In this document: in pieces, positions 24,177 to 41,067 of the stretch | Layout: every line of letters starts with the position of its first letter | How positions within the stretch are numbered: the stretch's first letter is position 1 | Sequence record: PQ100635.1 | DNA: 64,000 bases | Origin: Escherichia phage PNJ-9 | Direction: 5' to 3' (one strand) | Program-made: the position numbers and the translations under genes | Notes under the pieces: generated by a model | Seen by the model: the letters and a program-made list of their open reading frames with translations, nothing else | Databases searched by the model: none | What the model was told of the DNA's origin: nothing

Positions 24177-24225
24177 GAACCTTCAATAAATGAATTAATT
24201 GATATGGAAATGGGAAGAGATTATT

Positions 24226-24396
24226 ATGCAAGTTAAATTATTGTACCGTTTATTAAAAAATGGCAAGCATGATTGGTATTTGCTTATTAAAACCGATCCG
24301 AATTTTTTCTCTGGACAACCATTTACAGTTCGTCCTACTAAACGTCAGCTTCGCAAAGCTAAACGTTCCCATCGTAACTTTTATAGAGAATATTGA
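24226..24396 (+). CDS. small basic protein, RPTKRQ-tail family
   Basis: C-terminus VRPTKRQLRKAKRSHRNFYREY. Confidence 0.45.
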   Translation: MQVKLLYRLLKNGKHDWYLLIKTDPNFFSGQPFTVRPTKRQLRKAKRSHRNFYREY

Positions 24397-24397
24397 T

Positions 24398-24811: not shown

Positions 24812-24820
24812 GGGCTTATT

Positions 24821-25000
24821 ATGAAAACTGCATTATTTTTTGGCGAAAGAACAAACGGTCAAAAATCTTGGAAATTTGTTATAATTGGTGCTCCAAACAA
24901 TCCGAACATGAGGACTTCAATCATTTCGGTAACACGTCCTACTAAAAGAATGATTCGCCAATACAAACGTTTCCATCGTGACTTTTATAACATTTATTAA
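24821..25000 (+). CDS. small basic protein, RPTKR-tail family (59 aa), not on ORF track
   Basis: C-terminus TRPTKRMIRQYKRFHRDFYNIY paralogous to 24226 ORF. Confidence 0.4.
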   Translation: MKTALFFGERTNGQKSWKFVIIGAPNNPNMRTSIISVTRPTKRMIRQYKRFHRDFYNIY

Positions 25001-25002
25001 AT

Positions 25003-25034
25003 TATAAATACCCTTATCTAATATGGTAAGGGTT
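25003..25034 (+). promoter_or_regulatory. late promoter TATAAATA plus RBS-sequestering hairpin upstream of gene 49
   Basis: TATAAATA at 25003-25010; CCCTTA/TAAGGG inverted repeat with 3' arm overlapping the SD. Confidence 0.55.
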
Positions 25035-25038
25035 TATT

Positions 25039-25512
25039 ATGTTATTATCTGGCAAATTATACAAAGAAGAAAAACAAAAATTTTATGATGCACAGAATGG
25101 TAAGTGTCCTATTTGCCACCGTGAATTAGACCCTGATGTTCAAGGTAACCATCTTGACCACGACCACGAATTAAACGGGCCAAAAGCAGGTAGAGTTCGT
25201 GGGTTACTCTGTAATCTGTGCAACGCAGCAGAAGGCCAAATGAAGCATAAGTTCAACCGTTCCGGTCTTAAAGGACGTGATGTCGACTACCTCGAATGGC
25301 TTGAAGCTCTTCTTGCTTATTTGAAACAAGATTATTCTGATAATAATATCCATCCTAATTTTGTTCCAGACAAAACTAAAGAGTTCTCAAGACTAGGTAA
25401 AGAGGAAATGATGGCTGAGATGCTTCAAAGAGGATTTGAATATAATGAATCTGATACCAAAACACAATTAATAGCTTCATTCAAAAAGCAGCTTAGAAAG
25501 AGTTTAAAATGA
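25039..25512 (+). CDS. 49: endonuclease VII (Holliday junction resolvase)
   Basis: MLLSGKLYKEEKQKFYDAQNGKCPIC...HLDHDHELNG matches T4 gp49; 157 aa. Confidence 0.95.
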   Translation: MLLSGKLYKEEKQKFYDAQNGKCPICHRELDPDVQGNHLDHDHELNGPKAGRVRGLLCNLCNAAEGQMKHKFNRSGLKGRDVDYLEWLEALLAYLKQDYSDNNIHPNFVPDKTKEFSRLGKEEMMAEMLQRGFEYNESDTKTQLIASFKKQLRKSLK

Positions 25513-26046
25513 AAATTGAAAAAGAAATTGAAGGATTAATTCATAAAACTAATAAAGATCTTTTGAACGAGAATGCTAATAAAGATTCTCGTGTTTTTCC
25601 AACTCAACGGGACCTTATGGCTGGTATTGTGTCTAAGCACATTGCCAAAAATACGGTCCCGTCTTTTATTATGAAAGCACATGAAAGCGGAATTATCCAT
25701 TTCCATGATATTGATTATTCTCCTGCTCTTCCATTTACTAATTGCTGTTTAGTCGATTTAAAGGGGATGCTTGAGAATGGATTTAAATTAGGCAATGCTC
25801 AAATTGAAACGCCTAAATCGATTGGTGTTGCTACTGCAATTATGGCACAAATTACTGCGCAGGTTGCTTCCCATCAATACGGTGGAACTACATTTGCGAA
25901 TGTAGATAAAGTCCTTTCTCCTTATGTTAAACGCACCTACGCAAAACATATTGAAGATGCAGAAAAATGGCAAATCTCTGATGCGTTGAATTATGCCCAA
26001 TCTAAAACAGAAAAAGATGTCTATGACGCGTTCCAGGCGTATGAGT
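25509..26046 (+). CDS. nrdD: anaerobic ribonucleotide reductase NrdD, exon 1
   Basis: Class III RNR N-terminal region; frame interrupted at 26046 by group I intron. Confidence 0.85.
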
Positions 26047-27079
26047 TAATTTAATTCAGGCTCATGTAAAACCGGTCTAAACGGGGAACCTCTCTAGTAG
26101 ACAATCCCGTGCTAAATGTTCTTTTGAACTAAATGCCTAACGACTAACCGTGATGAATGTAGCGGTGTAGAATAGAAGCTAATGCTATTCGAAACGGCCG
26201 GCATCGAAAGATGAAGATATAGTCTAATCTGCATGGCGACATGCAGCAGTCATCTTGTATAAATAAGATTATCTTATGAATACGAGGTGAAACAATGAAA
26301 TGGATAAAAAGACGTTGTACTAAAATAAAAGATAAAGACGCATTTACATACTTAGTTAAGTTTTCTAATGGTGACATTTATATCGGTTATAAAAAATTTA
26401 GAACAATTAAAAACAAGCCCACAAACTGGAAAACTTACACAACGTCATCTAAGTATATAAATGAACGCTTAAAAACTGATACACCTACTAAATGGATAAT
26501 TTTAAAAACATTTGATAGTTATAAAGATGCATTAAAACATGAAGAAGAGGTCATACGTAAATATTTTTATAGCAAAAAATGTTTAAATAAATCCATAGGC
26601 GGTAAAAAGTTTTATAAGCATCCGGATACTGAAGAACATATTCAAAAATTAAGAGATGCTCATAAGGGTAAAGTGTTATCCGAATCTCATAAAAACAATA
26701 TAAAATCTTCTGTAGCTGAATATTATGCTAAAAACGGAAGATCTAAGGAACATGTGCAAAATAATATCAATAGTCGAAAAAGTAAAAAACAAGTATCGAT
26801 AAAGCTTAAAAATAAAACTTTTAGAAGTTTTAAAAAAGCAGCGGAATATTTAAATTGCACTGAAAGTGAAGTCGAAACTCATCCTCTTGTTTTGAGTATT
26901 AAGACTACTATTCATAAAGTTCCTGAATATGTGGTTGTTGACGGTATTAAGTATACGTCTTATATAGAAGCAGCTAAAGCGCTAAATTTTCATCCTAGCA
27001 CTATAAAAGAACGTTGCATATCTATGGACTATCCAAATTTTGTTGTTTCATATAAACGGGCATGAATTTGCGACTCATG
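26047..27079 (+). mobile_element. group I self-splicing intron in nrdD (T4 sunY/nrdD-type), 1033 nt
   Basis: P1: exon UAUGAGU pairs with GCUCAUG with U.G at splice site; conserved core CTAAACGGGGAACCTCTCTAGTAGACAATCCCGTGCTAAAT; P10 CUGAAU pairs with AUUCAG; omega G at 27079. Confidence 0.85.
26295..27065 (+). CDS. intron-encoded GIY-YIG homing endonuclease (I-TevII-like)
   Basis: GIY-YIG-like FTYLVKFSNGDIYIGY; lysine-rich, AT-rich; located 3' of intron core. Confidence 0.8.
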   Translation: MKWIKRRCTKIKDKDAFTYLVKFSNGDIYIGYKKFRTIKNKPTNWKTYTTSSKYINERLKTDTPTKWIILKTFDSYKDALKHEEEVIRKYFYSKKCLNKSIGGKKFYKHPDTEEHIQKLRDAHKGKVLSESHKNNIKSSVAEYYAKNGRSKEHVQNNINSRKSKKQVSIKLKNKTFRSFKKAAEYLNCTESEVETHPLVLSIKTTIHKVPEYVVVDGIKYTSYIEAAKALNFHPSTIKERCISMDYPNFVVSYKRA

Positions 27080-28371
27080 CTGAATATAATGATGAAGTAA
27101 ATACACTTTTCAGCTCTAATGGACAAACGCCTTTTGTAACAATTACATTTGGCACGGGAACTGACTGGACTGAACGAATGATTCAGAAAGCAATTCTGAA
27201 AAATCGTATTAAAGGTCTTGGCCGTGACGGGATAACTCCTATTTTCCCTAAACTTGTTATGTTCGTTGAAGAGGGTGTCAATCTTTATAAAGACGACCCG
27301 AACTACGATATTAAGCAGCTTGCTTTAGAATGCGCAAGCAAAAGAATGTATCCTGATATTATTTCAGTTAAGAACAATAAAGCTATTACTGGTTCTTCAG
27401 TTCCTGTTTCTCCGATGGGCTGTCGTAGTTTCTTGAGCGTATGGAAAGATTCGACTGGTAATGAAATTCTTGATGGACGTAATAATCTTGGTGTTGTAAC
27501 ACTGAATCTTCCTCGTATTGCATTAGATTCTTATATTGGAACACAATTCAATGAACAGAAATTTGTTGAGCTATTTAATGAACGAATGGATCTGTGTTTT
27601 GAAGCTTTGATGTGTAGAATTAGTTCTTTAAAGGGTGTTAAAGCAACTGTAGCTCCTATTCTTTACCAAGAAGGTGCATTCGGGGTTCGTCTTAAACCTG
27701 ATGACGATATAATTGAGTTATTTAAAAATGGTAGAAGTTCAGTGTCCCTAGGATACATTGGTATTCACGAATTGAATATTCTTGTCGGACGTGATATTGG
27801 ACAGGAAATTTTAACTAAAATGAATGCTCGTCTTAAGCAGTGGACTGAAAGAACCGGTTTTGCTTTTAGTTTATATTCTACTCCTGCTGAAAACCTTTGT
27901 TATCGCTTCTGTAAACTTGATACAGAAAAATATGGAAGTGTAAAAGATGTCACCGATAAAGGCTGGTACACTAACAGTTTCCACGTTTCAGTAGAAGAAA
28001 ATATTACTCCATTTGAAAAGATTTCTCGTGAAGCCCCATATCATTTCATTGCAACAGGCGGTCACATTTCTTATGTTGAACTTCCAGATATGAAAAATAA
28101 CTTAAAAGGTCTTGAGGCTGTCTGGGATTATGCTGCACAACATTTAGATTATTTTGGTGTTAATATGCCAGTAGATAAATGTTTTACATGTGGAAGTACT
28201 CATGAAATGACTCCTACTGAAAACGGATTTGTTTGTTCAGTTTGTGGAGAAAGTGATCCTAAAAAGATGAACACCATAAGAAGAACATGTGGTTATTTGG
28301 GAAATCCGAACGAACGCGGATTTAATCTCGGTAAAAATAAAGAAATCATGCATAGGGTTAAACACCAATGA
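27080..28371 (+). CDS. nrdD: anaerobic ribonucleotide reductase NrdD, exon 2
   Basis: Continues frame after intron; C-terminal Zn site CxxC...CxxC and glycyl-radical region RTCGYLG. Confidence 0.85.
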
Positions 28372-28838
28372 ATTATGATAGATTTTATCCTTGCGATTTT
28401 GTGAATGGCCCTGGTTGCAGGGTCGTTCTTTTCGTTACAGGTTGTTTGCATAAATGCGAAGGGTGTTATAATAAATCAACATGGAACGCTAGAAATGGTA
28501 TTCCATTCACTGGTGAAACACTAGAACAATTGATTGAATGTTTGAATAATGATTATATAGAAGGATTAACTATAACCGGAGGAGATCCTCTCTATCCTGA
28601 TAACCGAGATGTTATTCATCGCATTGCTCAAACAGTAAAAAATCTTTATCCCAATAAAAGCATTTGGTTGTGGACAGGATATAAGTTTGAAGATATTAAA
28701 CAACTAGAAATGCTTAAATATGTTGATGTTATTATTGATGGGAAGTATGAGAAAAATCTTCCGACTAAAAAGATGTGGCGAGGATCAGATAATCAGCGAC
28801 TTTGGTCAAATACCGATGGGGTGTGGAAACATGATTAA
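28368..28838 (+). CDS. nrdG: anaerobic RNR activating enzyme NrdG (radical SAM)
   Basis: CLHKCEGC radical-SAM cluster motif; ATGA overlap with nrdD. Confidence 0.92.
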   Translation: MNYDRFYPCDFVNGPGCRVVLFVTGCLHKCEGCYNKSTWNARNGIPFTGETLEQLIECLNNDYIEGLTITGGDPLYPDNRDVIHRIAQTVKNLYPNKSIWLWTGYKFEDIKQLEMLKYVDVIIDGKYEKNLPTKKMWRGSDNQRLWSNTDGVWKHD

Positions 28839-28948
28839 ATTGAATTACATTATGGATACTATAAATGATATGATTTTTCGTTTTGGTCCAGAATTTTATT
28901 CGCAGTATAGTTTGGTGTTTATCAATGCTTAGTTAATTAAGGGTAAAT

Positions 28949-29164
28949 ATGTATAAATTTCGTAAAGGTTTAGCTGATTTTCTTACAACTGTAACGTTCT
29001 TTTTGTTTATGGCAGTTGGAGCTATTTTTCTTATTCCTTTTACTGTTGTATTTTTCTTGATTAGTTTAATTTCTCCGGAAAAGGGTTTATCCTCCAGCGA
29101 ATTCAATGAACGTTTGGACAAAATTACTAATAAACTGAATTCTGTTCTTGATAAAAAGGCTTAA
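28949..29164 (+). CDS. small membrane protein
   Basis: Hydrophobic core FFLFMAVGAIFLIPFTVVFFLISLI. Confidence 0.55.
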   Translation: MYKFRKGLADFLTTVTFFLFMAVGAIFLIPFTVVFFLISLISPEKGLSSSEFNERLDKITNKLNSVLDKKA

Positions 29165-29166
29165 TT

Positions 29167-29484
29167 ATGATTAGTTTTGAGCGGTATGTGGTAGAGAGTT
29201 GGAAAGGTTTTGATATGTTCGGTAATGACTATTATTTTTACGAATGTAATCTAAATCCTAGTTTTTGGGCTGGACGTGAACGAGATCTCGAAGAAATTAG
29301 TGTTCGCGCCGAATTGTTAGGTGAACTGCCTACGGTTTATTTTACCTTTGATGAATCTGGATTTGTTATCCAGGTTTATTTTCCTGAAGAAAACTCTGGT
29401 GAGGATTCTGTTAATCCTCCTTATTGGGCTTACCAAGGAATTATTTCTCGTGGAACAAAACTCGAACTTAAAGAACAAGATTGA
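29167..29484 (+). CDS. hypothetical protein
   Basis: ORF track. Confidence 0.55.
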   Translation: MISFERYVVESWKGFDMFGNDYYFYECNLNPSFWAGRERDLEEISVRAELLGELPTVYFTFDESGFVIQVYFPEENSGEDSVNPPYWAYQGIISRGTKLELKEQD

Positions 29485-29773
29485 AATTTATGGCATCCCT
29501 GAAGAAGTAGGACGTTGTCCCGGATGTTATACTGTTACAAAACTTTTAAAGGAGCTCAATGCTCCTTATACATTTTATAAAGTCCTCACTAATAATGGTA
29601 AGATTGAATATGACCGTCCTTTAATCGTATCTCTTGCTAAACGTGCAGGATTCACTTCACTTAATATTCGTTATCCTGTCATATTTTTAAATGATAAGAA
29701 ACAAAGGAATATTGCAGAGTTTAAAAAGTCCTTGATTTCATTAGGATACGACTCTGATATCATAGAAGATTGA
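29450..29773 (+). CDS. glutaredoxin/NrdH-like redoxin
   Basis: KIEIYGIPEEVGRCPGCY with CPGC active site; in-frame GTG at 29450; terminator downstream. Confidence 0.5.
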   Translation: MEQNSNLKNKIEIYGIPEEVGRCPGCYTVTKLLKELNAPYTFYKVLTNNGKIEYDRPLIVSLAKRAGFTSLNIRYPVIFLNDKKQRNIAEFKKSLISLGYDSDIIED

Positions 29774-29796
29774 CCAGGTGCCGCCTGGTCTTCTTT
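29772..29796 (+). terminator. intrinsic terminator-like hairpin
   Basis: GACCAGG-TGCCG-CCTGGTC then TTCTTT. Confidence 0.5.
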
Positions 29797-29882
29797 ATCT
29801 CATTTCTAATATAATCCATTGGAATCTTCACTTCACTATCTCCTTGTGCCCCTCTCAAATCGAAAATATTTTCATAAAACAG

Positions 29883-29910
29883 TTTACATCCTCAATAGAT
29901 GTGTTAAGAT
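29883..29910 (+). promoter_or_regulatory. early-promoter-like element
   Basis: GTTTAC then GTGTTAAGAT; similar to element at 59292. Confidence 0.4.
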
Positions 29911-29938
29911 TAAACCATCTACTATAGAGGAAAATAAA

Positions 29939-30121
29939 ATGACAATTGAAGATAAAGAAATTAAGGTCGACCAGTACTATTCTGTCAATGGTAATGCAAT
30001 ACAGATAACCAGAGTTTCAAGCCTGGATGTTTGGTACCGTTCAATCAAATATCCAGAAATTGGTGAAATGCTTTGTGACCGTGGTATCTTCTGTTCAATT
30101 GCGAAGGAAATTAAGCCATGA
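29939..30121 (+). CDS. hypothetical protein
   Basis: ATG after AGAGGAAAA; ORF track 29819-30121. Confidence 0.5.
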   Translation: MTIEDKEIKVDQYYSVNGNAIQITRVSSLDVWYRSIKYPEIGEMLCDRGIFCSIAKEIKP

Positions 30122-30366
30122 TTAGTTTAGATTCAAAGAAAGTTGTTCTAACTCTTAATGTAAACAACGAACGTCCAGTATTCGTTACCATTTCCGATTT
30201 GCATGTTGAAATTGCTAATGGCGTCCGTACTTATCAAACGTCTAAAACACATTGGGACTATATCCCAATGTTGACGCTTACTCAGCGTTTAGAATCAATC
30301 GGTCTTAAAGACCTTTCAGTAAGTGAAATGAATTTTATCAAACGCATTGTATCAATCAACCTCTGA
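30118..30366 (+). CDS. hypothetical protein
   Basis: ATGA overlap. Confidence 0.55.
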   Translation: MISLDSKKVVLTLNVNNERPVFVTISDLHVEIANGVRTYQTSKTHWDYIPMLTLTQRLESIGLKDLSVSEMNFIKRIVSINL

Positions 30367-30373
30367 GGTACTT

Positions 30374-30667
30374 ATGGGTAAAACGTATCGTCGTAAAGAT
30401 TTGAAAGTTCGTGATTACGACTATTTTGGTAAACGTAAAGCTCCTGACGGTGTTAGCCACAAAGACATGGTTGAAAACATTTTCCGCTCAGATAAATGGA
30501 AACGTATGAAAGGCGTTGATTCTGAAGTCAAGAACGAAATGAATCGACAACTCCGCAAAGAAGTTCGTAAGTTGAAAAAAGATGTTTACAGTAAAGAAGA
30601 TTATGATTATAATACTTCTCATACTGAAGCCAAACGTAAAGCTAATGAATGTTATCGTTACAGTTGA
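30374..30667 (+). CDS. hypothetical basic protein
   Basis: ATG after GAGG; Lys/Arg-rich. Confidence 0.5.
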   Translation: MGKTYRRKDLKVRDYDYFGKRKAPDGVSHKDMVENIFRSDKWKRMKGVDSEVKNEMNRQLRKEVRKLKKDVYSKEDYDYNTSHTEAKRKANECYRYS

Positions 30668-30674
30668 GGAAATT

Positions 30675-30809
30675 ATGAATATCAAACGAATGCTTTTTAA
30701 GCAGGGATTATATACTTTAAATGCTAATCCAAAGGGTGATACAACTAAATGGTCTGTAAATGACTGGATTAAGTTCATCGATGAAAATGGGGCGTGGAAC
30801 ACAAAATGA
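30675..30809 (+). CDS. hypothetical small protein (44 aa)
   Basis: ATG after GAGGAAA. Confidence 0.35.
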   Translation: MNIKRMLFKQGLYTLNANPKGDTTKWSVNDWIKFIDENGAWNTK

Positions 30810-31006
30810 ATCCTGAAAATATTGTGTCATGGCAACTTCGTGAAGAACGTGCCGAATTCTTTGCCAATATGAAACTCAACGGCGTTGAGGATGAAGACTT
30901 TTTACGTTGGTTCTGGATTTACAAATACAAAGAATGTCAACATGCTGTGCTATTGACTTGCGCAACTATGTACGAAGGCTGGAAAGGCGCTAAAAAGTTC
31001 GGTTAA
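30806..31006 (+). CDS. hypothetical protein
   Basis: ATGA overlap. Confidence 0.5.
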   Translation: MNPENIVSWQLREERAEFFANMKLNGVEDEDFLRWFWIYKYKECQHAVLLTCATMYEGWKGAKKFG

Positions 31007-31017
31007 TAATATACAAC

Positions 31018-31051
31018 GATAGGAAGACGAATGTTATTATCTTCCTATCGT
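31018..31051 (+). promoter_or_regulatory. perfect 12-bp inverted repeat (hairpin) upstream of 31072 ORF
   Basis: ACGATAGGAAGA ... TCTTCCTATCGT, 10-nt loop containing TGTTATTAT; no T-run. Confidence 0.4.
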
Positions 31052-31071
31052 CTTAAAATGAGGAAAATATC

Positions 31072-31311
31072 ATGGCCCAAGAATTAGATTTTATCAAATT
31101 CAAAAAACACCTCGACGTTAAAATTGGGGATTCAATTGTTAGGATTGAGTATGACATTTTAACAGATGCTATTACTGTTAGTTGTGATGGAAATAGTTTC
31201 AGCTTCGATACAACCGAAAATAAATACCCAATCTATAAAGGCATCTTTGATATGGGTGTTGATATTACTCCACGTGATACAAATTACTTACTTTTCATGC
31301 TTAAAAAATAG
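31072..31311 (+). CDS. hypothetical protein
   Basis: GAGGAAAA upstream. Confidence 0.55.
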   Translation: MAQELDFIKFKKHLDVKIGDSIVRIEYDILTDAITVSCDGNSFSFDTTENKYPIYKGIFDMGVDITPRDTNYLLFMLKK

Positions 31312-31377
31312 TATATAAACTCTTGAGAGCAGAGTATAATTCTCTCATTGGATAATAAAATAACCGAGGAAAATAAT

Positions 31378-31710
31378 ATGTCTACTAAAATCAAAAACGT
31401 AGTTAATTCTTTCGCTTTCGATAAAGTTGTTGCTCTTCTGGAATCCGGCAATATTGTTACTCCTCAAGTCCTTGACGCGTGGGAATTCCGTCTTTATGAA
31501 ATTATGCAAAAACACGACCAGAAAATTGGACGTAATTCTATTCGTGAAATTCTAGTACAATATATTCTTTCTGAATTTGACGTTGCTGCATTTGGTGTTG
31601 AATCTAAAGCTTATCAGAAACATGAAATCTCTGAAAAGACTATCCGTCGTATGAAAAATCAACGTAAGAAAAAATTCGTTGACCTGAAAATTGTTAAGGC
31701 GGTAAAATGA
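31378..31710 (+). CDS. hypothetical protein
   Basis: GAGGAAAA upstream. Confidence 0.55.
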   Translation: MSTKIKNVVNSFAFDKVVALLESGNIVTPQVLDAWEFRLYEIMQKHDQKIGRNSIREILVQYILSEFDVAAFGVESKAYQKHEISEKTIRRMKNQRKKKFVDLKIVKAVK

Positions 31711-31934
31711 GCGTATTAACAGAAACTTTGATTAATGACCTGCGTCTAGCTGGTTATGAAGTTGGTACAAATAGTCTAGGTCTTTCTCAGATTGAAGGGC
31801 TTGGATTTATCCTAGAATATGAATTCAAACAATGGTGGCTATATACTACGGCTGACGATGCGTTGAATATCGATTTCGTTGACCAATTTGATTCGTTGGA
31901 TGATGCTCTTGAAGCAGCAAAGGAACTAGAATGA
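31707..31934 (+). CDS. hypothetical acidic protein
   Basis: ATGA overlap. Confidence 0.55.
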   Translation: MSVLTETLINDLRLAGYEVGTNSLGLSQIEGLGFILEYEFKQWWLYTTADDALNIDFVDQFDSLDDALEAAKELE

Positions 31935-32200
31935 AATTAACTCGAATCAGTATAACTGAAGAAAAGCTGGGCGAATTTTATGTTGACGAATATATGAAAG
32001 TCACGTATTTTCCATTCGTTAAAGGTGTTGGTTTTTGGGAAACTCATGTATCTCAATTAAACGAAGGCGACTATAACGAAACACATGAGAACTTTTTAGA
32101 TTTTCTTTATAATGCCGGTCTTACTGAGCTTTATATCGATATCCATGAGTTCAAACGTTTAATGGAAAAAGTGTTTCAGGCTTATTGTTTGCTCCGATAG
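31931..32200 (+). CDS. hypothetical protein
   Basis: ATGA overlap. Confidence 0.55.
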   Translation: MKLTRISITEEKLGEFYVDEYMKVTYFPFVKGVGFWETHVSQLNEGDYNETHENFLDFLYNAGLTELYIDIHEFKRLMEKVFQAYCLLR

Positions 32201-32207
32201 TATCTCG

Positions 32208-32251
32208 TGCTTTAAGATAGGTCTCTAAATATTATGATATAATAGACCTAT
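32208..32251 (+). promoter_or_regulatory. promoter-like region upstream of gene 55
   Basis: TGCTTTA MotA-box-like, TGATATAAT -10, IR ATAGGTCT/AGACCTAT; box to -10 spacing long. Confidence 0.35.
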
Positions 32252-32272
32252 GAATTGAGCTAAGAGGTACTT

Positions 32273-32830
32273 ATGACTGAACAAAAACCTAAAAATAACT
32301 ATGTGAATAATAAAGAGCTTCTCGCCGCTATAATCGAGTGGAAAAAGGAGCTCTTAAATAATAAAGACCCAAACAAAATTATTCGTCAGAATGATACCAT
32401 CGGTTTAGCAATTATGCTTATCGCCGAAGGCCTGTCCAAACGTTTCAACTTTTCAGGATATACCCAGTCTTGGAAGCAGGAGATGATTGCAGATGGGATT
32501 GAAGCCTCTATTAAGGGACTTCATAATTTCGACGAAACTAAGTACAATAACCCACATGCATACATAACTCGAGCTTGTTTTAATGCTTTTGTCCAACGTA
32601 TCAAAAAAGAGCGTAAGGAAGTTGCAAAGAAATATAGTTACTTCGTTCATAACGTCTACGACAGTCATGACGATGATATGGTAGCGTTGGTAGATGAAAC
32701 GTTTATTCAAGACATCTACGATAAAATGACGCATTATGAAGAATCCGCTTATAAAGCTCCTGGGGCTGAAAAGAAGGAAGTTGTTAGCGATTCGCCTAGT
32801 TTGGATTTTTTATATGAGGATGACAATTGA
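32273..32830 (+). CDS. 55: late-transcription sigma factor gp55
   Basis: [35 protein letters not shown]...[29 protein letters not shown] matches T4 gp55; 185 aa. Confidence 0.93.
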
Positions 32831-33029
32831 CATCTCTAACTACTTAGAAGAACCTTTTGACGAAGCAATCCCTTATTTGGTAAAACTGTTGGGTCGTGAA
32901 TTTAAAATTAATTTTGACATCGACCCTTTGAACCCACATGACGTGTCATTTTCGATAAATGGGACTCCGGTTGAGTATGAGTTCTGTATTGAAGAGGATG
33001 GACGTTTTTATTTTAATTTAATGAGATAA
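32814..33029 (+). CDS. hypothetical protein
   Basis: Internal ATG of ORF 32736-33029 overlapping end of 55. Confidence 0.45.
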
Positions 33030-33030
33030 T

Positions 33031-33354
33031 ATGACTACCGAGATTATTGAAAATAAAGAAGCAGAAGATGCAGTAGCTAAAATGCTACAAGAAATCCAAA
33101 AGAAAAATGAAGCTGAAGCACGTAAAAAATCCGAAAAGATTCTTAAAAAGAATCGTTTTGAGCTAAACCGTCTTTATGCTCATGCTCAAGAAGCAGCAAT
33201 TCAAAACAACTTCGAAGCTTACGAATATGCTATTAAGAAATCTCGGGATATTCTACGACAACCATATAATGACAAGTTAATTAAAATCCAGTGGGTTACT
33301 ACTCGTCAGGCTATTGAGGACATCATTAATGGCGCTAGTTCAAACAAAGTTTAA
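33031..33354 (+). CDS. hypothetical coiled-coil protein
   Basis: Lys/Glu-rich. Confidence 0.5.
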   Translation: MTTEIIENKEAEDAVAKMLQEIQKKNEAEARKKSEKILKKNRFELNRLYAHAQEAAIQNNFEAYEYAIKKSRDILRQPYNDKLIKIQWVTTRQAIEDIINGASSNKV

Positions 33355-33535
33355 ACGTCTTAATCTGAACGCAGGATTCACCCTTAAATTGGGAGGTCCT
33401 CTTTGTGTTAAAATTTCCGAAAAGGAATATCACGACGGTTCTATTACAGAAATTTGTCCGCCTATTGTAAAGGCAGACCCAAAACAACTCGTGTGGGTCG
33501 ATTCATTTCAAGTTAAGAAATGGTGGAAACGATGA
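33329..33535 (+). CDS. hypothetical protein
   Basis: ATG 33329 with GAGGA upstream; ORF track 33314-33535. Confidence 0.4.
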   Translation: MALVQTKFKRLNLNAGFTLKLGGPLCVKISEKEYHDGSITEICPPIVKADPKQLVWVDSFQVKKWWKR

Positions 33536-33574
33536 GAGAAATCGATTTAGGCATTTTCTGAGAGGTGCTTATGC

Positions 33575-33748
33575 ATGACGAACATCCCGACTTCTGAAAA
33601 TTTCGATAAAATCCGTAAAGGCAAAGCAGAAAGAATGAGACGTTTTAAAGAGTCTTATGATAAAGCTAAAGCCGAAGGAACTATTACATACAAGCCCATT
33701 CGATTTAAAAGTTCAAATGAGCCTCTGTACGGTGTACTATGTGGATAG
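33575..33748 (+). CDS. small basic protein (57 aa), not on ORF track
   Basis: ORF ends at the stem of a strong intrinsic terminator. Confidence 0.35.
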   Translation: MTNIPTSENFDKIRKGKAERMRRFKESYDKAKAEGTITYKPIRFKSSNEPLYGVLCG

Positions 33749-33771
33749 GAACTCTTCGGAGTTCCTTTTTT
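33748..33771 (+). terminator. intrinsic terminator
   Basis: GGAACTC-TTCG-GAGTTCC then TTTTTT. Confidence 0.7.
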
Positions 33772-33817
33772 GCTTTATAAACGGATGATAGAATGAATTA
33801 ACTAATGAGGAAATAAT

Positions 33818-34837
33818 ATGAAAATTTTAAATTTAGGTGATTGGCATTTAGGCGTTAAAGCTGATGATGAGTGGGTTCAATCAATCCAGTTGGATGGAAT
33901 TAAGCAGGCGATAGAATATTCTAAGAAAAATGGAATTACTACATGGATTCAATACGGCGATATTTTTGATGTGCGAAAAGCAATCACGCATAAAACTATG
34001 GAGTTCGCACGTGAAATAGTTCAAATGCTTGATGATGCTGGTATTACCCTACATACTGTTGTAGGAAACCATGATATGCACTTTAAAAATACTTTAACTC
34101 CAAACGCTTCTACTGAGCTTTTAGCTAAATATCCTAATGTTAAAGTATATGATAAGCCTACTACAGTAGATTTTGACGGATGTTTGATTGATTTAATTCC
34201 TTGGATGTGCGAAGAAAATACTGGTGAAATTCTTGAACATATCAAAACTTCATCTGCTTCTTTTTGTGTTGGGCACTGGGAACTGAATGGTTTTTATTTC
34301 TATAAAGGAATGAAGTCTCATGGGCTTGAACCTGATTTTTTAAAGACCTATAAACAAGTCTGGTCCGGCCACTTCCACACAATCTCTGAAGCTGCTAACG
34401 TCAAGTATATTGGGACACCATGGACCCTTACTGCAGGTGATGAAAACGACCCGCGCGGATTCTGGGTATTTGACACTGATGTTGAACGTATGGAATTTAT
34501 TCCTAATGAAACAACATGGCATCGACGAATCACTTATCCGTTTAAAGGCAAAATCAATTATTCTGATTATACTAATCTAGCCTTACGTGTTATAGTATCA
34601 GAAATTGATTCAGAGTTGACTAAGTTTGAATCTGAACTTGAAAAAGTAGTTCACTCTCTTCGTATGGTTTCTAAAGTTGATAACAGTGTTGAATCTGATG
34701 ACGACCAGGAAATCGAGATTAAATCACTTCAAGATATCATTAAAGAATATATTGACGCGATTCCAGATATCTCAGACGAAGACAGAGAAGCGCTGGTCAA
34801 ATATTCCAACGAACTTTATATTGAGGCAACACAATGA
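33818..34837 (+). CDS. 47: recombination nuclease subunit gp47 (Mre11-like)
   Basis: Calcineurin-like phosphoesterase motifs LGDWHLG, GDIFD, GNHD; 339 aa as T4 gp47. Confidence 0.92.
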   Translation: MKILNLGDWHLGVKADDEWVQSIQLDGIKQAIEYSKKNGITTWIQYGDIFDVRKAITHKTMEFAREIVQMLDDAGITLHTVVGNHDMHFKNTLTPNASTELLAKYPNVKVYDKPTTVDFDGCLIDLIPWMCEENTGEILEHIKTSSASFCVGHWELNGFYFYKGMKSHGLEPDFLKTYKQVWSGHFHTISEAANVKYIGTPWTLTAGDENDPRGFWVFDTDVERMEFIPNETTWHRRITYPFKGKINYSDYTNLALRVIVSEIDSELTKFESELEKVVHSLRMVSKVDNSVESDDDQEIEIKSLQDIIKEYIDAIPDISDEDREALVKYSNELYIEATQ

Positions 34838-35085
34838 CTTTAGATGAATTTAACAATGCTGGACTCAGGCTTGAAGTTGAAATGGACGTTAAAGATGATG
34901 ATGGATTCGAGAACACTATCAAGTATTGGATTGAGCCATTACGCGTTGAAGGCAATGAAGTTAAAGCAGTTCATGTCTGCACTGACTGGGCTATTGAATT
35001 TAGCTTTAATATAATGGACAACGATACTCCTGGCTCTATTCTTAAAATGGCTGAAGCGTGTATTGAGGATGCATATAATGACTAA
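34834..35085 (+). CDS. hypothetical acidic protein
   Basis: ATGA overlap. Confidence 0.55.
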   Translation: MTLDEFNNAGLRLEVEMDVKDDDGFENTIKYWIEPLRVEGNEVKAVHVCTDWAIEFSFNIMDNDTPGSILKMAEACIEDAYND

Positions 35086-35938
35086 GACTGATTATGAAAC
35101 TCAAATTTATAAAATTCTTAAAACCTCCTTCCCTTCGTGGGAAGGACTTGATGAGTATTTAAACTTTATAAAAACTAATTCCACTAATAAAGTAAAAGGA
35201 CTGACTCAGGTTCACCATATACTACCAAAATCTATTTTTCCAGATTTTAAAACATGTAAATGGAACTTGTGTCATTTAAGTCATTATAACCATTTTATTG
35301 CACATAGCATTTTGGCAAAAACTGGCAACCACAAGATGATTAACGCGCTTCAAAGAATGTATACCGGGCGATTTAATTTAAATTGTACAACGCATGAACT
35401 AAATAATATAGCCGAGGCGTATTCTTTAGAATTCGAAAATGTTTGTAAAGTTAATTCTATAAAAATGACATTATACTATTCCAATCAGGATAATAGAATT
35501 AAGATTAGTCAAGCTTTAAAAGCATGGTTTAAAAATCCGGAAAATTTAAAGAAACACAGAATTATGACAAGTTCAAAGGAATTTAAAGAAACCGTCTCTA
35601 TTATGACCCAAAAGTGGTTTAGTGACCCTATTAATAAACAAAAACATTTGGATGCTTGTCGTAAAATATCTAAAACAGCCGAATATAGAGAATCATTATC
35701 GGCTGGAGTTTCACGCAGTTGGAAAAATCCTAAAGTTAGAGACACTCATTTGAAATCTAGAAGAAAAGGATATCATTGGGAAAATTTTGATATGCTTTAC
35801 GTTGAATGGGTTAAAATGAACAAACCTAAATATGTGACTTTTTCTAAAAATTTAGTCAATTTAGGATATCCTATACAAAGTTCTTTACAGGCTTTAGTTT
35901 CTGAATTCATGAGGAAAAATTTAAGTGAAAACATTTAA
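35078..35938 (+). CDS. freestanding HNH homing endonuclease (Mob-like)
   Basis: HNH motif VHHILPKS...N...H..H; repeated W-x-NP-x-K modules; AT-rich; inserted between 47 and 46. Confidence 0.75.
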   Translation: MTKTDYETQIYKILKTSFPSWEGLDEYLNFIKTNSTNKVKGLTQVHHILPKSIFPDFKTCKWNLCHLSHYNHFIAHSILAKTGNHKMINALQRMYTGRFNLNCTTHELNNIAEAYSLEFENVCKVNSIKMTLYYSNQDNRIKISQALKAWFKNPENLKKHRIMTSSKEFKETVSIMTQKWFSDPINKQKHLDACRKISKTAEYRESLSAGVSRSWKNPKVRDTHLKSRRKGYHWENFDMLYVEWVKMNKPKYVTFSKNLVNLGYPIQSSLQALVSEFMRKNLSENI

Positions 35939-37613
35939 ATTAAATCGTGTTCGTTATAAAAATATAATGTCTGTTGGGCAAAATTTTATCGATATCCAAT
36001 TAGATAAAGTCCAAAAGACCTTAATCACAGGTAAAAATGGTGGTGGTAAATCTACGATGTTAGAAGCCATTACTTTCGGACTTTTCGGTAAACCATTTCG
36101 TGATGTTAAGAAAGGGCAAATCGTTAACAGCACGAACAAGAAAGAGCTCTTAGTTGAGCTTTGGATGGAATTCGATGGTAAAAAATACTTCATTAAACGT
36201 GGCCAAAAGCCCAATATTTTCGAAATCTCCGTTGACGGTGTTCGTCTTGATGAATCTGCCAGCAGTCGTGACTTCCAAGAAGAATTTGAACGCAGCATCG
36301 GAATGTCATACGCGTCTTTTAAACAAATCGTTGTGCTTGGGACGGCAGGGTATACCCCTTTCATGGCTCTTAGCACCCCTGCTCGTAGAAAACTTGTCGA
36401 AGACCTTTTAGAAGTCGGCACACTCGCTGAAATGGATAAAATCAATAAGTCTCAAGTTCGAGAACTTAATTCCCAGGGACAAGTTCTCGATGCCAAGAAA
36501 GATGGCGTTATCCAACAAATTAAGATTTATAACGAGAATATCGAACGTCAAAAGAAATTATCTGGTGATAATGTAGCGCGCCTACAGAATATGTATGACG
36601 ACCTAGCCAAAGAAGCTCGTTCATTAAAAGCAGAAATCGAAGAAGCTAATGAGCGACTACTTAATATCGTTCTTGATGAAGACCCTACTGAGGCATTCAA
36701 CAAGATAGGACAAGAAGCATTCTTGATTAAATCTAAAATTGACTCGTATAACAAAGTTATTAAGATGTATCATGACGGTGGTACATGTCCTACTTGTGCG
36801 TCGCAATTGCACCAGGGTGATCCTATTGTCTCTAAGATTACCGATAAGCTTCACGAATGTAATCACTCATTCGAGCAACTTACATGTCACAGAGATAATC
36901 TGAGTGTCCTAGTGGACGAATATAGAGCTAATGTTAAGACTAAACAGGACCTTGCATCTGATATTCGTACCAAGAAACAAGCAATGATTGCCACTATTGA
37001 TAAAGCTAAGAAAGTTAAAGCTGCAATAGAGCAAGCCTCAGCAGAATTTATCGACCATGCCGATGAGATAGCTTTGCTTCAAAAAGAACTTGATAAAATC
37101 ATTAAAACAAAATCTGATATCGTTCTTGAAAAATACCATCGTGGTATTATCACAGATATGTTAAAAGATTCTGGTATTAAAGGTGCTATCATTAAAAAAT
37201 ATGTGCCTCTGTTCAACAAGCAGATTAACTATTATCTTAAAATCATGGAAGCTGATTACGTGTTTTCTATTGACGAAGAATTCAATGAATCTATAAAATC
37301 ACGTGGTCGTGAAGATTTTAGTTATGCTTCATTTAGTCAAGGTGAAAAGGCACGTATCGATATCGCATTGTTGTTTACATGGCGAGATATTGCTGAAAAA
37401 GTCTCCGGTGTTAAAATCAACACTCTGATTCTTGATGAGGTTTTTGATGGTGCTGTCGATTCTGAGGCTGTTAAGGCTATAGATACCATTCTTGGAAGTT
37501 TACAAAATACTAATGTGTTCATTATCTCTCATCGAGACCATGACCCTCAGCGGTATGGACAACATCTTCAGATGAGCAAAGTTGGACGATTTACGGTAAT
37601 GACTGTTTCATAA
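35925..37613 (+). CDS. 46: recombination ATPase gp46 (Rad50/SbcC-like)
   Basis: Walker A GKNGGGKST, long coiled coil with CPTC zinc hook, Walker B LILDEVFD; N-terminus as T4 gp46. Confidence 0.93.
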   Translation: MKTFKLNRVRYKNIMSVGQNFIDIQLDKVQKTLITGKNGGGKSTMLEAITFGLFGKPFRDVKKGQIVNSTNKKELLVELWMEFDGKKYFIKRGQKPNIFEISVDGVRLDESASSRDFQEEFERSIGMSYASFKQIVVLGTAGYTPFMALSTPARRKLVEDLLEVGTLAEMDKINKSQVRELNSQGQVLDAKKDGVIQQIKIYNENIERQKKLSGDNVARLQNMYDDLAKEARSLKAEIEEANERLLNIVLDEDPTEAFNKIGQEAFLIKSKIDSYNKVIKMYHDGGTCPTCASQLHQGDPIVSKITDKLHECNHSFEQLTCHRDNLSVLVDEYRANVKTKQDLASDIRTKKQAMIATIDKAKKVKAAIEQASAEFIDHADEIALLQKELDKIIKTKSDIVLEKYHRGIITDMLKDSGIKGAIIKKYVPLFNKQINYYLKIMEADYVFSIDEEFNESIKSRGREDFSYASFSQGEKARIDIALLFTWRDIAEKVSGVKINTLILDEVFDGAVDSEAVKAIDTILGSLQNTNVFIISHRDHDPQRYGQHLQMSKVGRFTVMTVS

Positions 37614-37650
37614 ACGCTTTAACATGATGTGGTTATAATGACCACATCAA
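37613..37650 (+). promoter_or_regulatory. middle-promoter-like element (MotA box + -10) with inverted repeat
   Basis: AACGCTTTA, 12 bp, TATAAT; IR GATGTGGT/ACCACATC. Confidence 0.5.
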
Positions 37651-37667
37651 ATTAAATGGAGAACAAC

Positions 37668-37856
37668 ATGGAGTATTCAACCGGGCAACATCTTCTCGTT
37701 GTCCCTGAAATTAAAAAATATGTTTTGACCAATACGTTTTCAGGTGAAGAACATATTGTTACCGAACAAATGCTCAAATCTGCTTTTAAAGATGAGTATA
37801 ATAAAATAATGTCTAATCGCAATTCCGCATGGACAGTTACCGACTTCTACGAATAA
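37668..37856 (+). CDS. hypothetical protein (T4 45.2 position, 62 aa)
   Basis: ATG after GGAG; size and position fit T4 45.2. Confidence 0.55.
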   Translation: MEYSTGQHLLVVPEIKKYVLTNTFSGEEHIVTEQMLKSAFKDEYNKIMSNRNSAWTVTDFYE

Positions 37857-37868
37857 GAGAGAAATAAT

Positions 37869-38285
37869 ATGTTTACTACTGCTAAAGGTTTCACTGCTGC
37901 TGATCTGAAAGTTACTTCTATCCGTACTGACGCTAACCCACATAACCATAATCGTGTTCGTAAAGCATGGGTCCTGCATTGTGATGACGCAAGTGCTAAA
38001 AAACTCCAATCTTTGCCACAAGAAACTCGTTTTATGATTTATGGTTTTATTGATAATGATGTATCTGATATGTGGATTCATCTGATGCGTAAGCACTATA
38101 AAGATTCTATTGAAGCCGGCGGAAAAATCGTTCTTGATAAAGATGGTTCTGAACGTCTGGAAGATTTCTATTGTGTTGATGCCGACGAACAACTAATTGC
38201 AGCTGGCGAAATTGTTGCTTCTAAAATTCCAGAATATATTGAATCACTGCCTGAAGCTATTAAAAAGCAAATGGTTGCTGCATAA
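37869..38285 (+). CDS. hypothetical protein (position of T4 rpbA)
   Basis: GAGAGAAA upstream; function assigned by synteny only. Confidence 0.5.
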   Translation: MFTTAKGFTAADLKVTSIRTDANPHNHNRVRKAWVLHCDDASAKKLQSLPQETRFMIYGFIDNDVSDMWIHLMRKHYKDSIEAGGKIVLDKDGSERLEDFYCVDADEQLIAAGEIVASKIPEYIESLPEAIKKQMVAA

Positions 38286-38325
38286 TAAATTTGTTAAACT
38301 TTGAATTGTCTTGAAAGGAAATAAA

Positions 38326-39012
38326 ATGAAACTGTCTAAAGATACTATCGCTATTCTGAAAAACTTTGCCTCTATTAACTCTGGCATTCTGCTGAGTCAA
38401 GGTAAATTTATTATGACTCGTGCAGTTAATGGTACCACTTATGCGGAAGCAAATATCTCTGATGAAATTGATTTTGACGTAGCACTTTATGATTTGAATA
38501 GCTTCTTAAGCATTTTGAGTCTAGTGTCTGATGATGCTGAAATTTCAATGCACACCGATGGCAATATTAAAATTGCAGATACACGTTCCACGGTTTATTG
38601 GCCTGCCGCTGACAAGAGCACCATTGTTTTTCCTAATAAGCCAATTCAATTCCCAGTGGCTTCTGTGATTACTGAAATTAAAGCTGAAGACCTTCAACAA
38701 TTGCTTCGAGTTTCACGTGGTCTTCAGATTGATACAATTGCTATTACAAATAAAGATGGTAAAATTGTTATCAATGGCTATAATAAAGTTGAAGATTCCG
38801 GACTAACTCGTCCTAAGTATTCTTTGACTCTTACCGATTATGATGGTTCTAACAACTTTAACTTCGTAATCAATATGGCTAATATGAAAATTCAGCCGGG
38901 TAATTATAAAGTAATGTTGTGGGGAGCTGGTGATAAAGTTGCAGCCAAGTTTGAAAGCCCTCAAGTAAGTTATGTTATTGCGATGGAAGCCGATTCTACT
39001 CACGACTTCTAA
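38326..39012 (+). CDS. 45: sliding clamp gp45
   Basis: MKLSKDTIAILKNFASINSGILL... near-identical to T4 gp45. Confidence 0.95.
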   Translation: MKLSKDTIAILKNFASINSGILLSQGKFIMTRAVNGTTYAEANISDEIDFDVALYDLNSFLSILSLVSDDAEISMHTDGNIKIADTRSTVYWPAADKSTIVFPNKPIQFPVASVITEIKAEDLQQLLRVSRGLQIDTIAITNKDGKIVINGYNKVEDSGLTRPKYSLTLTDYDGSNNFNFVINMANMKIQPGNYKVMLWGAGDKVAAKFESPQVSYVIAMEADSTHDF

Positions 39013-39015
39013 GTC

Positions 39016-39042
39016 AAAGCTTTACGTTTATTGTGATACGAT
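39016..39042 (+). promoter_or_regulatory. middle-promoter-like element upstream of gene 44
   Basis: AAAGCTTTA MotA-box-like, 12 bp, TACGAT. Confidence 0.35.
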
Positions 39043-39087
39043 TATGGAGGAGAAATCCTCCAGTTTAATGATAATGAGGAAAATTAC

Positions 39088-40050
39088 ATGATTACTATCA
39101 ATCCCAAAGAACACATTCTAGAACAGAAATATCGTCCTTCTTCCATTGACGAATGTATTCTGCCTGCGTATGACCATGAAACATTCAAGTCTTTAGTATC
39201 TAAAGGAAAACTTCCTCATATTATTTTGCACTCTCCTTCTCCTGGTACAGGTAAAACAACTGTAGCAAAAGCATTATGTAATGATATCAACGCTGAAATG
39301 ATGTTCGTCAACGGTTCCGATTGTAAAATTGATTTTGTACGCGGTCCGTTAACCGCATTCGCTCGTTCAGTCTCAATGGAAGGCAAGCCTAAAGTTATTG
39401 TTATTGATGAATTTGACCGTAGTGGTCTCGCCGAATCACAACGTCACCTTCGTACGTTTATGGAAGAATTCTCTAGTAACTGTTCTATTATTATTACTGC
39501 TAACAACATCGATGGAATTATTGAACCATTACGTAGTCGTTGTCGAGTTATCGAATTCGGACGTCCAACCGAAGAAGATAAAATCTCGATGATGAAGAAA
39601 ATGATTCATCGTATGGTTGAAATCTGTAAGAACGAAAATATCGAAATCGCTGATATGAAAGTTGTTGCAGCTCTGGTTAAAAAGAACTTCCCGGACTTTC
39701 GTCGTACAATTGGTCAATTAGACCAGTACTCGTCTAAAGGTGTTCTTGATGCGGGTATTTTGTCTATCGTAACTAATGACCGTGGCACAGTCTCTGATGT
39801 TATTGAAGCAATGAAGAACAAAGATATCAAACAGCTTCGTGCATTAGCTCCAAAATATGCTGCTGATTATTCATGGTTCATCGATAAATTAGTTTCAGAA
39901 TGTTATGACCAAGTTGCACCTGGTAAAAGTATTATTTCGCTTTATGAAATTGCAGGCGAAAACAATAAGTTTCATGGATTAGCAAGTAATATTGAATTAC
40001 ATGTTATGTATATGCTTCTTCAACTGACCTGCGAACTGACTTGGAAATAA
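39088..40050 (+). CDS. 44: clamp loader large subunit gp44
   Basis: [18 protein letters not shown]...[10 protein letters not shown] Walker A; matches T4 gp44. Confidence 0.95.
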
Positions 40051-40051
40051 T

Positions 40052-40615
40052 ATGAACTTATTCGATGATGACGTCCGGCTTAACGAGCACCAAATTGCAT
40101 GGAAGTCTAATGACGCTGATGCGATTCAAAAATGTGCTGATATGTTTAAAGAAAAACCTGAGAATGAATTCTTTAAAATCATTAATGCTATTAATGAAAA
40201 GAAATCTATGTCAATTGCTCAGGTCGACTACTCAAAATTTATGGTTGAGAACTCATTATCCCAGTTCCCAGAATGTATGCCAGCTGTTTACATGATGAAC
40301 TTAGTCGGTTCTGAATTAAGTGATGAAGCGCACTTCAACTATATGATGGCGGCAATTCCGCGTGGTCGTCGATTCTCTAAATGGGCTAAACTAGTCGAAG
40401 ACACTTCAGAGTTACTAGTTATCAAACTGTTGATGAAACATTACACAATCAACATGAATGATGCTACTGAGTATAAGCGGCTCCTTGAAAAAAATAACAA
40501 GTTGCCAATAGTCCTTAAAGAACTGAAGGCCATGGTCACTGATGAGTTTCTCAAAGAAGTTACAAAAAATGTGAAAGAACAAAAACAATTTAAAAAATTA
40601 GCATTGGAATGGTAA
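40052..40615 (+). CDS. 62: clamp loader small subunit gp62
   Basis: Position and size (187 aa) as T4 gp62. Confidence 0.88.
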
Positions 40616-40617
40616 AA

Positions 40618-40986
40618 ATGATTGAAATTAAATTGAAGAACCCTGAAGATTTTCTGAAAGTCAAAGAGACTTTGACCCGTATGGGCATCGCTAATAACAA
40701 GGATAAAGTCCTTTACCAGTCTTGTCATATCCTCCAAAAGCAGGGTAAATATTACATCGTCCACTTTAAAGAAATGTTGCGTATGGACGGACGTCAGGTT
40801 GATATTGATGGTGAAGACTATCAGCGACGTGATTCGATTGCTCAGTTGCTTGAAGACTGGGGATTGATTGTTATTGAAGACTCTGCTCGTGAAGATCTGT
40901 TTGGCCTGACTAATAACTTCCGTGTTATCTCTTTTAAACAGAAAGATGACTGGACTTTGAAAGCAAAATATACAATTGGTAATTAA
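40618..40986 (+). CDS. regA: translational repressor RegA
   Basis: MIEIKLKNPEDFLKVKETLTRMGIANNKDKVLYQSCHILQK matches T4 RegA. Confidence 0.93.
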   Translation: MIEIKLKNPEDFLKVKETLTRMGIANNKDKVLYQSCHILQKQGKYYIVHFKEMLRMDGRQVDIDGEDYQRRDSIAQLLEDWGLIVIEDSAREDLFGLTNNFRVISFKQKDDWTLKAKYTIGN

Positions 40987-40990
40987 AGCA

Positions 40991-41010
40991 ATGGGACTTC
41001 GGTCCCATTT
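40991..41010 (+). terminator. intrinsic terminator-like hairpin between regA and 43
   Basis: ATGGGAC-TTCG-GTCCCAT then TTT. Confidence 0.5.
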
Positions 41011-41067
41011 GGAGTATAATAAGTTCATCAACAAACAAAAGACAATAACTCGTCTAAAGGAAATTAA

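Follow-up and report, generated by a model that had tools for sequence, protein, structure and literature searches.

Absence of T4-type glucosyltransferases and a predicted arabinosyl-5-hydroxycytosine pathway in an RB69-like phage

The 64,000-nucleotide stretch of Escherichia phage PNJ-9 (PQ100635.1) that we analyzed at its full length, hereafter the window, contains no counterpart of the T4 alpha-glucosyltransferase gene a-gt between genes 55 and 47. Taken together with the remaining gene content, this makes it very likely that the source phage is a Mosigvirus without glucosyltransferases, in which arabinosyl-5-hydroxycytosine takes the place of the T4 modification. What is established here is which genes are present, their orthology, the fold adopted by the sugar transferase, and that a-gt, b-gt, and ba-gt are missing; what the enzymes do and the chemistry of the base are drawn from the literature on the phages RB69 and HY126. 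An earlier note on this DNA had offered the replacement of glucosylation as a new inference; it was in fact published as early as 2018 (PMC6024577), with the biochemistry following in 2026 (PMC13326640; PMC13390438). Both the missing a-gt and b-gt and the arabinosylation are already known. The 2003 annotation of RB69 already shows the gene content, its interpretation dates from 2018, and the biochemistry was solved in 2026 in the form of arabinosyl-5-hydroxycytosine, a flavin-dependent synthase, UDP-Araf genes, and two GT-B transferases. The observation itself is the textbook state of Mosigvirus genomes and adds little; its practical value lies in the annotation of the window and its relatives.

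The window is assignable to an RB69/JS09-type T-even phage of the genus Mosigvirus because of its matches to Mosigvirus genomes, its alignment with RB69, and the complete identity of two of its proteins, gp43 and UvsX (both 100%), to those of RB69. Megablast searches of a phage collection with two segments of the window (31000–36000 and 15000–30000) recovered PNJ-6, ST0, JS09, pEK20, F2, and HY126 as matches with 95–99.6% identity, and the Mosigvirus genomes RB69, ST0, and PNJ-6 show 94–99.6% nucleotide identity to the window. For the 5-kb query that includes the 55–47 interval, the alignments cover its first 4.1 kb (82%), with 99.4% identity for ST0, which is classified under Tevenvirinae; Mosigvirus JS09, and 95.7% for HY126. 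The RB69 reference aligns with 94.1% nucleotide identity to positions 28815–35099 and with 97.2% to positions 35926–54416. The window is oriented in the direction of early transcription. Its differences from RB69 include a homing-endonuclease gene (35063–35938) in place of 46.1 and an endonuclease ORF that splits nrdD; this nrdD interruption is not recognized as a group I intron by Rfam at the gathering threshold.

The 55–47 interval is bordered on the left by gene 55 (32273–32830, plus strand), coding for the late sigma factor as a 185-aa ORF that is 99.5% identical to RB69 gp55 and whose counterparts in ST0 and RB69 carry an RNA polymerase sigma factor annotation. On the right it is bordered by gene 47 (33818–34837, plus strand), coding for an SbcD/Mre11-like nuclease subunit of 339 aa with 86% identity to T4 gp47 and 88% to RB69 gp47. 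As the earlier note had observed, only ORFs of 57–107 aa lie in-between, with nothing resembling the approximately 400-aa a-gt; all four are on the plus strand and are orthologs of the T4 genes a-gt.5 to a-gt.2. The first, the a-gt.5 ortholog (32820–33029, 69 aa; Pfam DUF5491, PHROG 1169), is 47% identical to its T4 and 100% to its RB69 counterpart, and shares its first 11 nt with the end of gene 55, an overlap also present in RB69. It is followed by the a-gt.4 ortholog (33031–33354, 107 aa; Pfam DUF2654; 58% to T4 with an E-value of 3e-38, 100% to RB69), the a-gt.3 ortholog (33329–33535, 68 aa; PHROG 1648, matching no Pfam family; 69% to T4, 98.5% to RB69), and the a-gt.2 ortholog (33575–33748, 57 aa; Pfam DUF5486; 76% to T4, 94.7% to RB69). 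DUF5491, DUF2654, PHROG 1648, and DUF5486 are all families of unknown function, and a literature search with the gene names a-gt.2 to a-gt.5 found no papers. Rfam, run over the entire window with its gathering thresholds, returned nothing, leaving the 55–47 interval without a known RNA family.

Gene order and ORF lengths in this interval are identical in RB69, whose GenBank record already names the same four genes a-gt.2 to a-gt.5 between 55 and 47, and the interval proteins of the window and RB69 are 95–100% identical. The T4 interval has the same borders and contains these four small ORFs in unchanged order, but it is about 2.3 kb longer: the T4 record reads 55, a-gt.5, a-gt.4, a-gt.3, a-gt.2, mobB, a-gt (400 aa), 47.1, and 47, such that exactly mobB, a-gt, and 47.1 are absent from the window. 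The names a-gt.2 to a-gt.5 are hence positional only, and a role of these genes in glucosylation is unlikely since all four are conserved with or without a-gt. We accordingly picture the interval as the conserved a-gt.5/a-gt.4/a-gt.3/a-gt.2 block followed by a single module, comprised of a hairpin terminator and a MotA-type promoter, that would drive gene 47, with the T4 cassette mobB-a-gt(-47.1) simply missing.

The proposed replacement chemistry maps to a sugar island of seven genes absent from T4 (43820–50370), flanked by gene 43 (41068–43779) and uvsX (50470–51642), a module that had been pointed out between these two genes in RB69 (PMC6024577). All seven proteins are 96–100% identical to RB69 gp55 to gp45, and no homolog of a-gt, b-gt, or ba-gt lies in the window, which lends support to the suggestion in the earlier note that glucosylation was replaced by the chemistry of this island. 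The first gene (43820–44455, plus strand) codes for a SIS-domain protein (Pfam) that is 98.6% identical to RB69p055 (gp55), for which the role of arabinose-5-phosphate isomerase is taken from the work on RB69 (PMC13326640). The second (44637–46325, plus strand) codes for a predicted bifunctional sugar kinase/nucleotidyltransferase (RB69 gp52:53, HY126 AfhE-like; 96–99% identity to RB69 ORF053c+052c) with an N-terminal NTP_transferase domain and weak matches to kinase families in its C-terminal region (Pfam), its role in making UDP-arabinofuranose being that given for RB69 (PMC13326640; PMC6024577). The third (46310–46711, plus strand) corresponds to the small phosphatase RB69 gp51 (98.5% identity to RB69p051; HY126 AfhF-like), matches no Pfam family, and has its phosphatase role from the same source (PMC13326640). 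A gene set for the supply of UDP-arabinofuranose, namely isomerase, kinase/uridylyltransferase, and phosphatase, is therewith present at 96–99% identity to RB69 gp55, gp52:53, and gp51, and the products of 43820–46711 would convert ribulose-5-phosphate to UDP-arabinofuranose. The island further codes for a peptidase-U32-like protein (46766–47926, plus strand; Pfam Peptidase_U32; 99.2% to RB69p050), the synthase and transferase discussed below, and, as its last gene before uvsX, a thymidylate-kinase-like nucleotide kinase (49822–50370, plus strand; 98.9% to RB69p045, i.e., gp45), whose counterparts in ST0 and RB69 are annotated as thymidylate kinase. In the window, intact single ORFs, including 44637–46325, stand at both places where the GenBank record of RB69 has split genes (gp46/47 and gp52/53); the RB69 splits have been attributed to sequencing errors (PMC6024577, PMC13326640).

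The ORF at 48205–48921 (plus strand; Pfam Thymidylat_synt) is the positional counterpart of T4 gene 42, and the earlier note had taken it for a retained hydroxymethylase. This did not hold up: the product is predicted to be a 5-hydroxy-dCMP synthase, a hydroxylase belonging to the same superfamily, and not a hydroxymethylase, because it is 99.6% identical to RB69 gp48, which makes 5-hydroxy-dCMP, and only 25% identical to T4 gp42. Experiments on RB69 gp48 have identified it as a flavin-dependent 5-hydroxy-dCMP synthase that takes its oxygen from O2 and yields 5-hydroxy-dCMP rather than 5-hydroxymethyl-dCMP (PMC13326640). The window protein falls by sequence within these thymidylate-synthase-family synthases, its activity being carried over from RB69 gp48, and it is also about 98% identical to the structures PDB 9iqc/9ir2. 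The accession 9iqc adjoins 9iqz, a HY126 structure, and presumably derives from HY126 as well; the enzymes and structures of the HY126 Afh pathway are attributed to He et al., Nat Chem Biol 2026, in the form in which that work is cited in PMC13326640. The gene-42 homolog of the window and its relatives is accordingly better annotated as a 5-hydroxy-dCMP synthase.

The alternative that this gene makes hydroxymethylcytosine (hmC) to which a sugar other than glucose is attached, giving the arabinosyl-hmC proposed in 2018, has in its favor the membership of the ORF in the thymidylate-synthase family, its location at the position of T4 gene 42, and the reading of RB69 DNA as ara-hmC by Thomas et al. 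2018 (PMC6024577). However, it is contradicted by the same identities, i.e., near-identity to RB69 gp48 and remoteness from T4 gp42, and by several results on RB69: gp48 yields 5-hydroxy-dC with O2-derived oxygen, the base fragment of the nucleoside has an m/z of 128 (5-hydroxycytosine) and not 142 (hmC), and NMR places the arabinose linkage at C5 (PMC13326640). Moreover, a study of Mosigvirus NP reports the same arabinosyl-5-hydroxycytosine chemistry and calls the earlier hmC assignment erroneous (PMC13390438), and we regard arabinosyl-hmC as very improbable. The NP study also reports restriction of this Mosigvirus by BrxU, which in vitro cut those modified phage DNAs that were assayed (PMC13390438). 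The RB69 base is a mono- or di-arabinofuranosyl-5-hydroxycytosine and not a derivative of hydroxymethylcytosine, as determined by MS/MS and NMR (PMC13326640, Lee et al. 2026), and by analogy to RB69 the DNA of PNJ-9 probably carries the same base. In the reading that we favor, T4 makes glucosyl-hmC whereas the lineage of the window makes arabinosyl-5-hydroxycytosine: the gene-42 counterpart would hydroxylate dCMP to 5-hydroxy-dCMP, and two GT-B transferases, one encoded at 48921–49820 and the other near rIIA, would add one or two arabinoses to 5-hydroxycytosine. A glucosyltransferase would be unneeded in such a phage because it would make no hydroxymethylcytosine.

The first of these transferases qualifies the statement in the earlier note that no b-gt-like gene follows gene 42. 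No homolog of b-gt or ba-gt was found by tblastn downstream of the gene-42 homolog or elsewhere in the window, and to that extent the statement stands; but the 299-aa ORF at 48921–49820 (plus strand; RB69 gp46:47 ortholog, 98–100% identical to RB69 gp47+gp46), which begins on the last base of the stop codon of the gene-42 homolog, has the GT-B fold, as do T4 a-gt and b-gt. It matches no Pfam family, shows no BLASTP similarity to T4 b-gt (E=1.4), and has no detectable sequence similarity to ba-gt either. A sugar transferase therefore occupies the position of b-gt in T4, but it is a different GT-B enzyme. In each of three lineages, the position directly after the thymidylate-synthase homolog is taken by a gene for a DNA-sugar transferase, viz., b-gt in T4, ba-gt/TAGT in T2/T6, and the present gene in the window, with the last differing from T4 b-gt and ba-gt in that its donor and acceptor are, according to the literature, UDP-Araf and 5-hydroxycytosine. 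We propose that it is arabinosyltransferase 1, with which both its GT-B fold and its place beside the synthase agree. In RB69, gp46:47 and gp3 have been assigned as the two arabinosyltransferases, with the activity of the first not reconstituted for either RB69 or DLP3 and the single transferases inactive in vitro (PMC13326640); ORF003c of RB69 had been proposed as an arabinosyltransferase before that (PMC6024577). The second arabinosyltransferase, the homolog of ORF003c, has its locus in the region from gene 39 to rIIA, which the window does not reach. Its ST0 version is gp110, a 366-aa protein encoded between the topoisomerase large subunit and rIIA, which matches PDB 9iqz, labelled as a glycosyltransferase of phage HY126 (E 1e-250). 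The 299-aa ORF, which would otherwise pass as 'hypothetical', can be annotated as a GT-B DNA glycosyltransferase.

The absence of both T4 glucosyltransferases, as claimed in the earlier note, was borne out by tblastn searches with T4 a-gt, T4 b-gt, and the T2/T6-type ba-gt of RB14, which gave no match at E<=1 in either the 64-kb window or bases 1–75,000 of ST0. A more sensitive tblastn (word size 2) yielded a single weak a-gt match in the window at 17818–18057 (E=0.011); this vanishes under default settings and lies in an nrdC.10 homolog with AAA/STAND ATPase signatures, and we read it as a chance match. The ORFs of about 1 kb in the nrdC region (19747–22770) were likewise considered as a sugar island or a hidden transferase and set aside, Pfam returning only DUF7235 or nothing. 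The complete ST0 genome has no annotated glucosyltransferase; its 75–159 kb portion was assessed by annotation and by Pfam searches of the large uncharacterized ORFs, those of at least 250 aa being an RNase H, a DAHP-synthase family protein, and a HAD-like protein. From these relatives we infer that glucosyltransferases are also absent from the rest of the phage's own genome, beyond the window. Homologs of T4 a-gt in the phage collection fall into identity groups of at least 90% (T4-like coliphages), about 66% (Klebsiella phages), and below 60%, and among the homologs sampled none came from a close relative of the window. Homologs of b-gt occur in only 126 records of the collection, which implies that lacking b-gt is the rule even among the close relatives of T4. 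RB69 was described in 2018 as being without glucosyltransferases and carrying arabinose in its DNA (PMC6024577, Thomas et al. 2018). That a T4-type glucosyltransferase resides elsewhere in the genome, with glucosylation relocated and not lost, is extremely improbable: the window is part of a genome, T-even genomes are mosaic, and glycosyltransferase genes occur at several loci (e.g., the second arabinosyltransferase near rIIA in ST0), but neither the ST0 annotation nor the tblastn search of its first 75 kb revealed one, RB69 is explicitly stated to lack homologs of both T4 a-gt and b-gt (PMC13326640), and without hmC the acceptor would be missing.

The last 69 bases of the 55–47 interval (33749–33817), between the a-gt.2 ortholog and gene 47, are not empty. 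A terminator scan detected an intrinsic-terminator-like hairpin on the plus strand (33747–33766) with an 8-bp stem, a UUCG loop, and a following T-run; its RNA fold has an energy of -13.9 kcal/mol (z = -4.0), and none of 200 shuffled sequences folds as well. T4 and Roth79, a Klebsiella phage, both have an equivalent hairpin 3' of a-gt.2. In T4, MotA-dependent middle promoters combine the sigma-70 -10 element TAnnnT with a MotA box, (a/t)(a/t)TGCTT(t/c)A, that precedes it by about 12 bp. Just downstream of the hairpin, the sequence reads as such a site on the plus strand upstream of gene 47 (33770–33794), with TTGCTTTA at 33770–33777, an 11-nt spacer, and TAGAAT at 33789–33794, followed by GAGGA and the ATG of gene 47. 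It thus has the architecture of a MotA box combined with a sigma-70 -10 element and may function as a middle promoter. The window has 13 occurrences of TGCTTYA-N11-13-TANNNT where 2.1 are expected, and the ST0 genome encodes a MotA homolog. The combination of hairpin and MotA box was also considered as a widespread repeat, but the window has just one instance of the two together. The site at 33770–33794 aligns with the modules flanking a-gt in T4 and Roth79, and T4 has the same hairpin plus MotA-box module after a-gt.2 as the window, with a second one farther on in its longer interval.

Roth79 bears on how the difference between T4 and the window arose, as its gene order is 55, four small ORFs, a-gt, 47, and 46, with an a-gt that is 66% identical to that of T4. 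The gp47 identities are 86% between the window and T4, 71% between the window and Roth79, and 71% between T4 and Roth79. Since T4 and the more distantly related Roth79 both carry a-gt at this locus, parsimony favors one loss event, and a-gt was probably lost once in the Mosigvirus lineage rather than gained twice elsewhere, an argument drawn from three taxa and one gene (gp47) of a mosaic genome. The converse possibility, rather unlikely in our estimate, is that the Mosigvirus arrangement is ancestral and that the Tequatrovirus and Klebsiella-phage lineages acquired the a-gt cassette by independent or lateral insertion. Two features of a mobile cassette speak for it: near-identical hairpin plus MotA-box modules bracket a-gt in both T4 and Roth79, and the T4 gene adjoins the homing endonuclease gene mobB. 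T-even genomes exchange such cassettes. Against this, the position of a-gt is exactly the same in both phages, its 66% identity between them is close to the 71% of the flanking gp47, suggesting vertical co-inheritance, and the gp47 of the window is nearer to that of T4 than either is to that of Roth79, such that one loss remains a more parsimonious explanation than a pair of insertions into one site.

If a-gt was indeed lost, the modules offer a possible route. T4 and Roth79 have two copies each, one after a-gt.2 and one after a-gt, bracketing a-gt as direct repeats of about 45 bp with terminator and middle promoter, whereas the window has a single module. The latter fits recombination between two copies but equally fits an uninterrupted ancestral state. 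It is with considerable doubt that we raise the idea of the single hairpin plus MotA-box module being the recombination joint left by excision of the a-gt cassette. Were this true, the modules would be portable joints through which T-even phages drop or swap DNA-modification cassettes while the downstream genes stay transcribed, and they would be the counterpart, with middle promoters, of the stem-loop cassettes with early promoters described for T4-type genomes.

The bifunctional kinase/uridylyltransferase (44637-46325) and the GT-B-fold glycosyltransferase (48921-49820) of the sugar island, the arabinosylation genes between gene 43 and uvsX, are each encoded in the window by one intact ORF, whereas their counterparts in the RB69 reference record (NC_004928) are split, respectively, into ORF053c/052c and ORF047c/046c. 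The intact ORFs are consistent with published work that attributes the splits in RB69 to sequencing errors. The kinase/uridylyltransferase gene is closely preceded by a MotA-box plus -10 motif (44584-44608), one of 13 matches to the pattern TGCTTYA-N11-13-TANNNT in the window (e.g., also at 12529, 25421, 33771, 35793, 37075, and 59686), where shuffling predicts 2.1; the + strand carries nine of these matches. In tblastn searches with the T4 DNA alpha-glucosyltransferase, the only weak match in the window falls in the 333-aa nrdC.10 homolog (17671-18672, + strand), and we consider it spurious, as this protein shows sub-threshold AAA/STAND NTPase matches; it also has a match to HTH_37.

Two further loci carry endonuclease ORFs. 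The nrdD gene (25509-28371, + strand) is present as two ORFs, 25509-26054 and 27040-28371, covering positions 1-141 and 145-562 of the Pfam NRDD model, and is interrupted by a 256-aa GIY-YIG/NUMOD endonuclease ORF on the same strand (26295-27065); Rfam searches at gathering thresholds found no group I intron at this split. JK45 shares this split, whereas the gene of the related Mosigvirus ST0 is uninterrupted. The second, a 291-aa HNH/Mob-type homing endonuclease ORF (35063-35938, + strand; PHROG 655), is flanked by the 46.2 homolog and gene 46 and occupies the spot where ST0 and RB69 instead have the 46.1 (DUF5487) gene; around it, across 35001-36000, GC drops to 0.30. This ORF is carried by the relatives pEK20, G2469, SQ17, and F2, and is absent from PNJ-6, ST0, and JS09.

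Elsewhere, in the window's counterpart of the T4 61.2 region, a 219-aa ORF (55754-56413, + strand) matches Pfam AdfA (anti-DarT factor A; E 3e-118). Outside the window, ST0 encodes at ~97 kb (genome stretch L006:21256-22248) a 330-aa protein of the DAHP_synth_1 family (E 2e-74), to which KDO-8-P synthase, a user of arabinose-5-phosphate, belongs. Because the phage also encodes an arabinose-5-phosphate isomerase, a tie of this protein to pentose-phosphate rerouting is conceivable.
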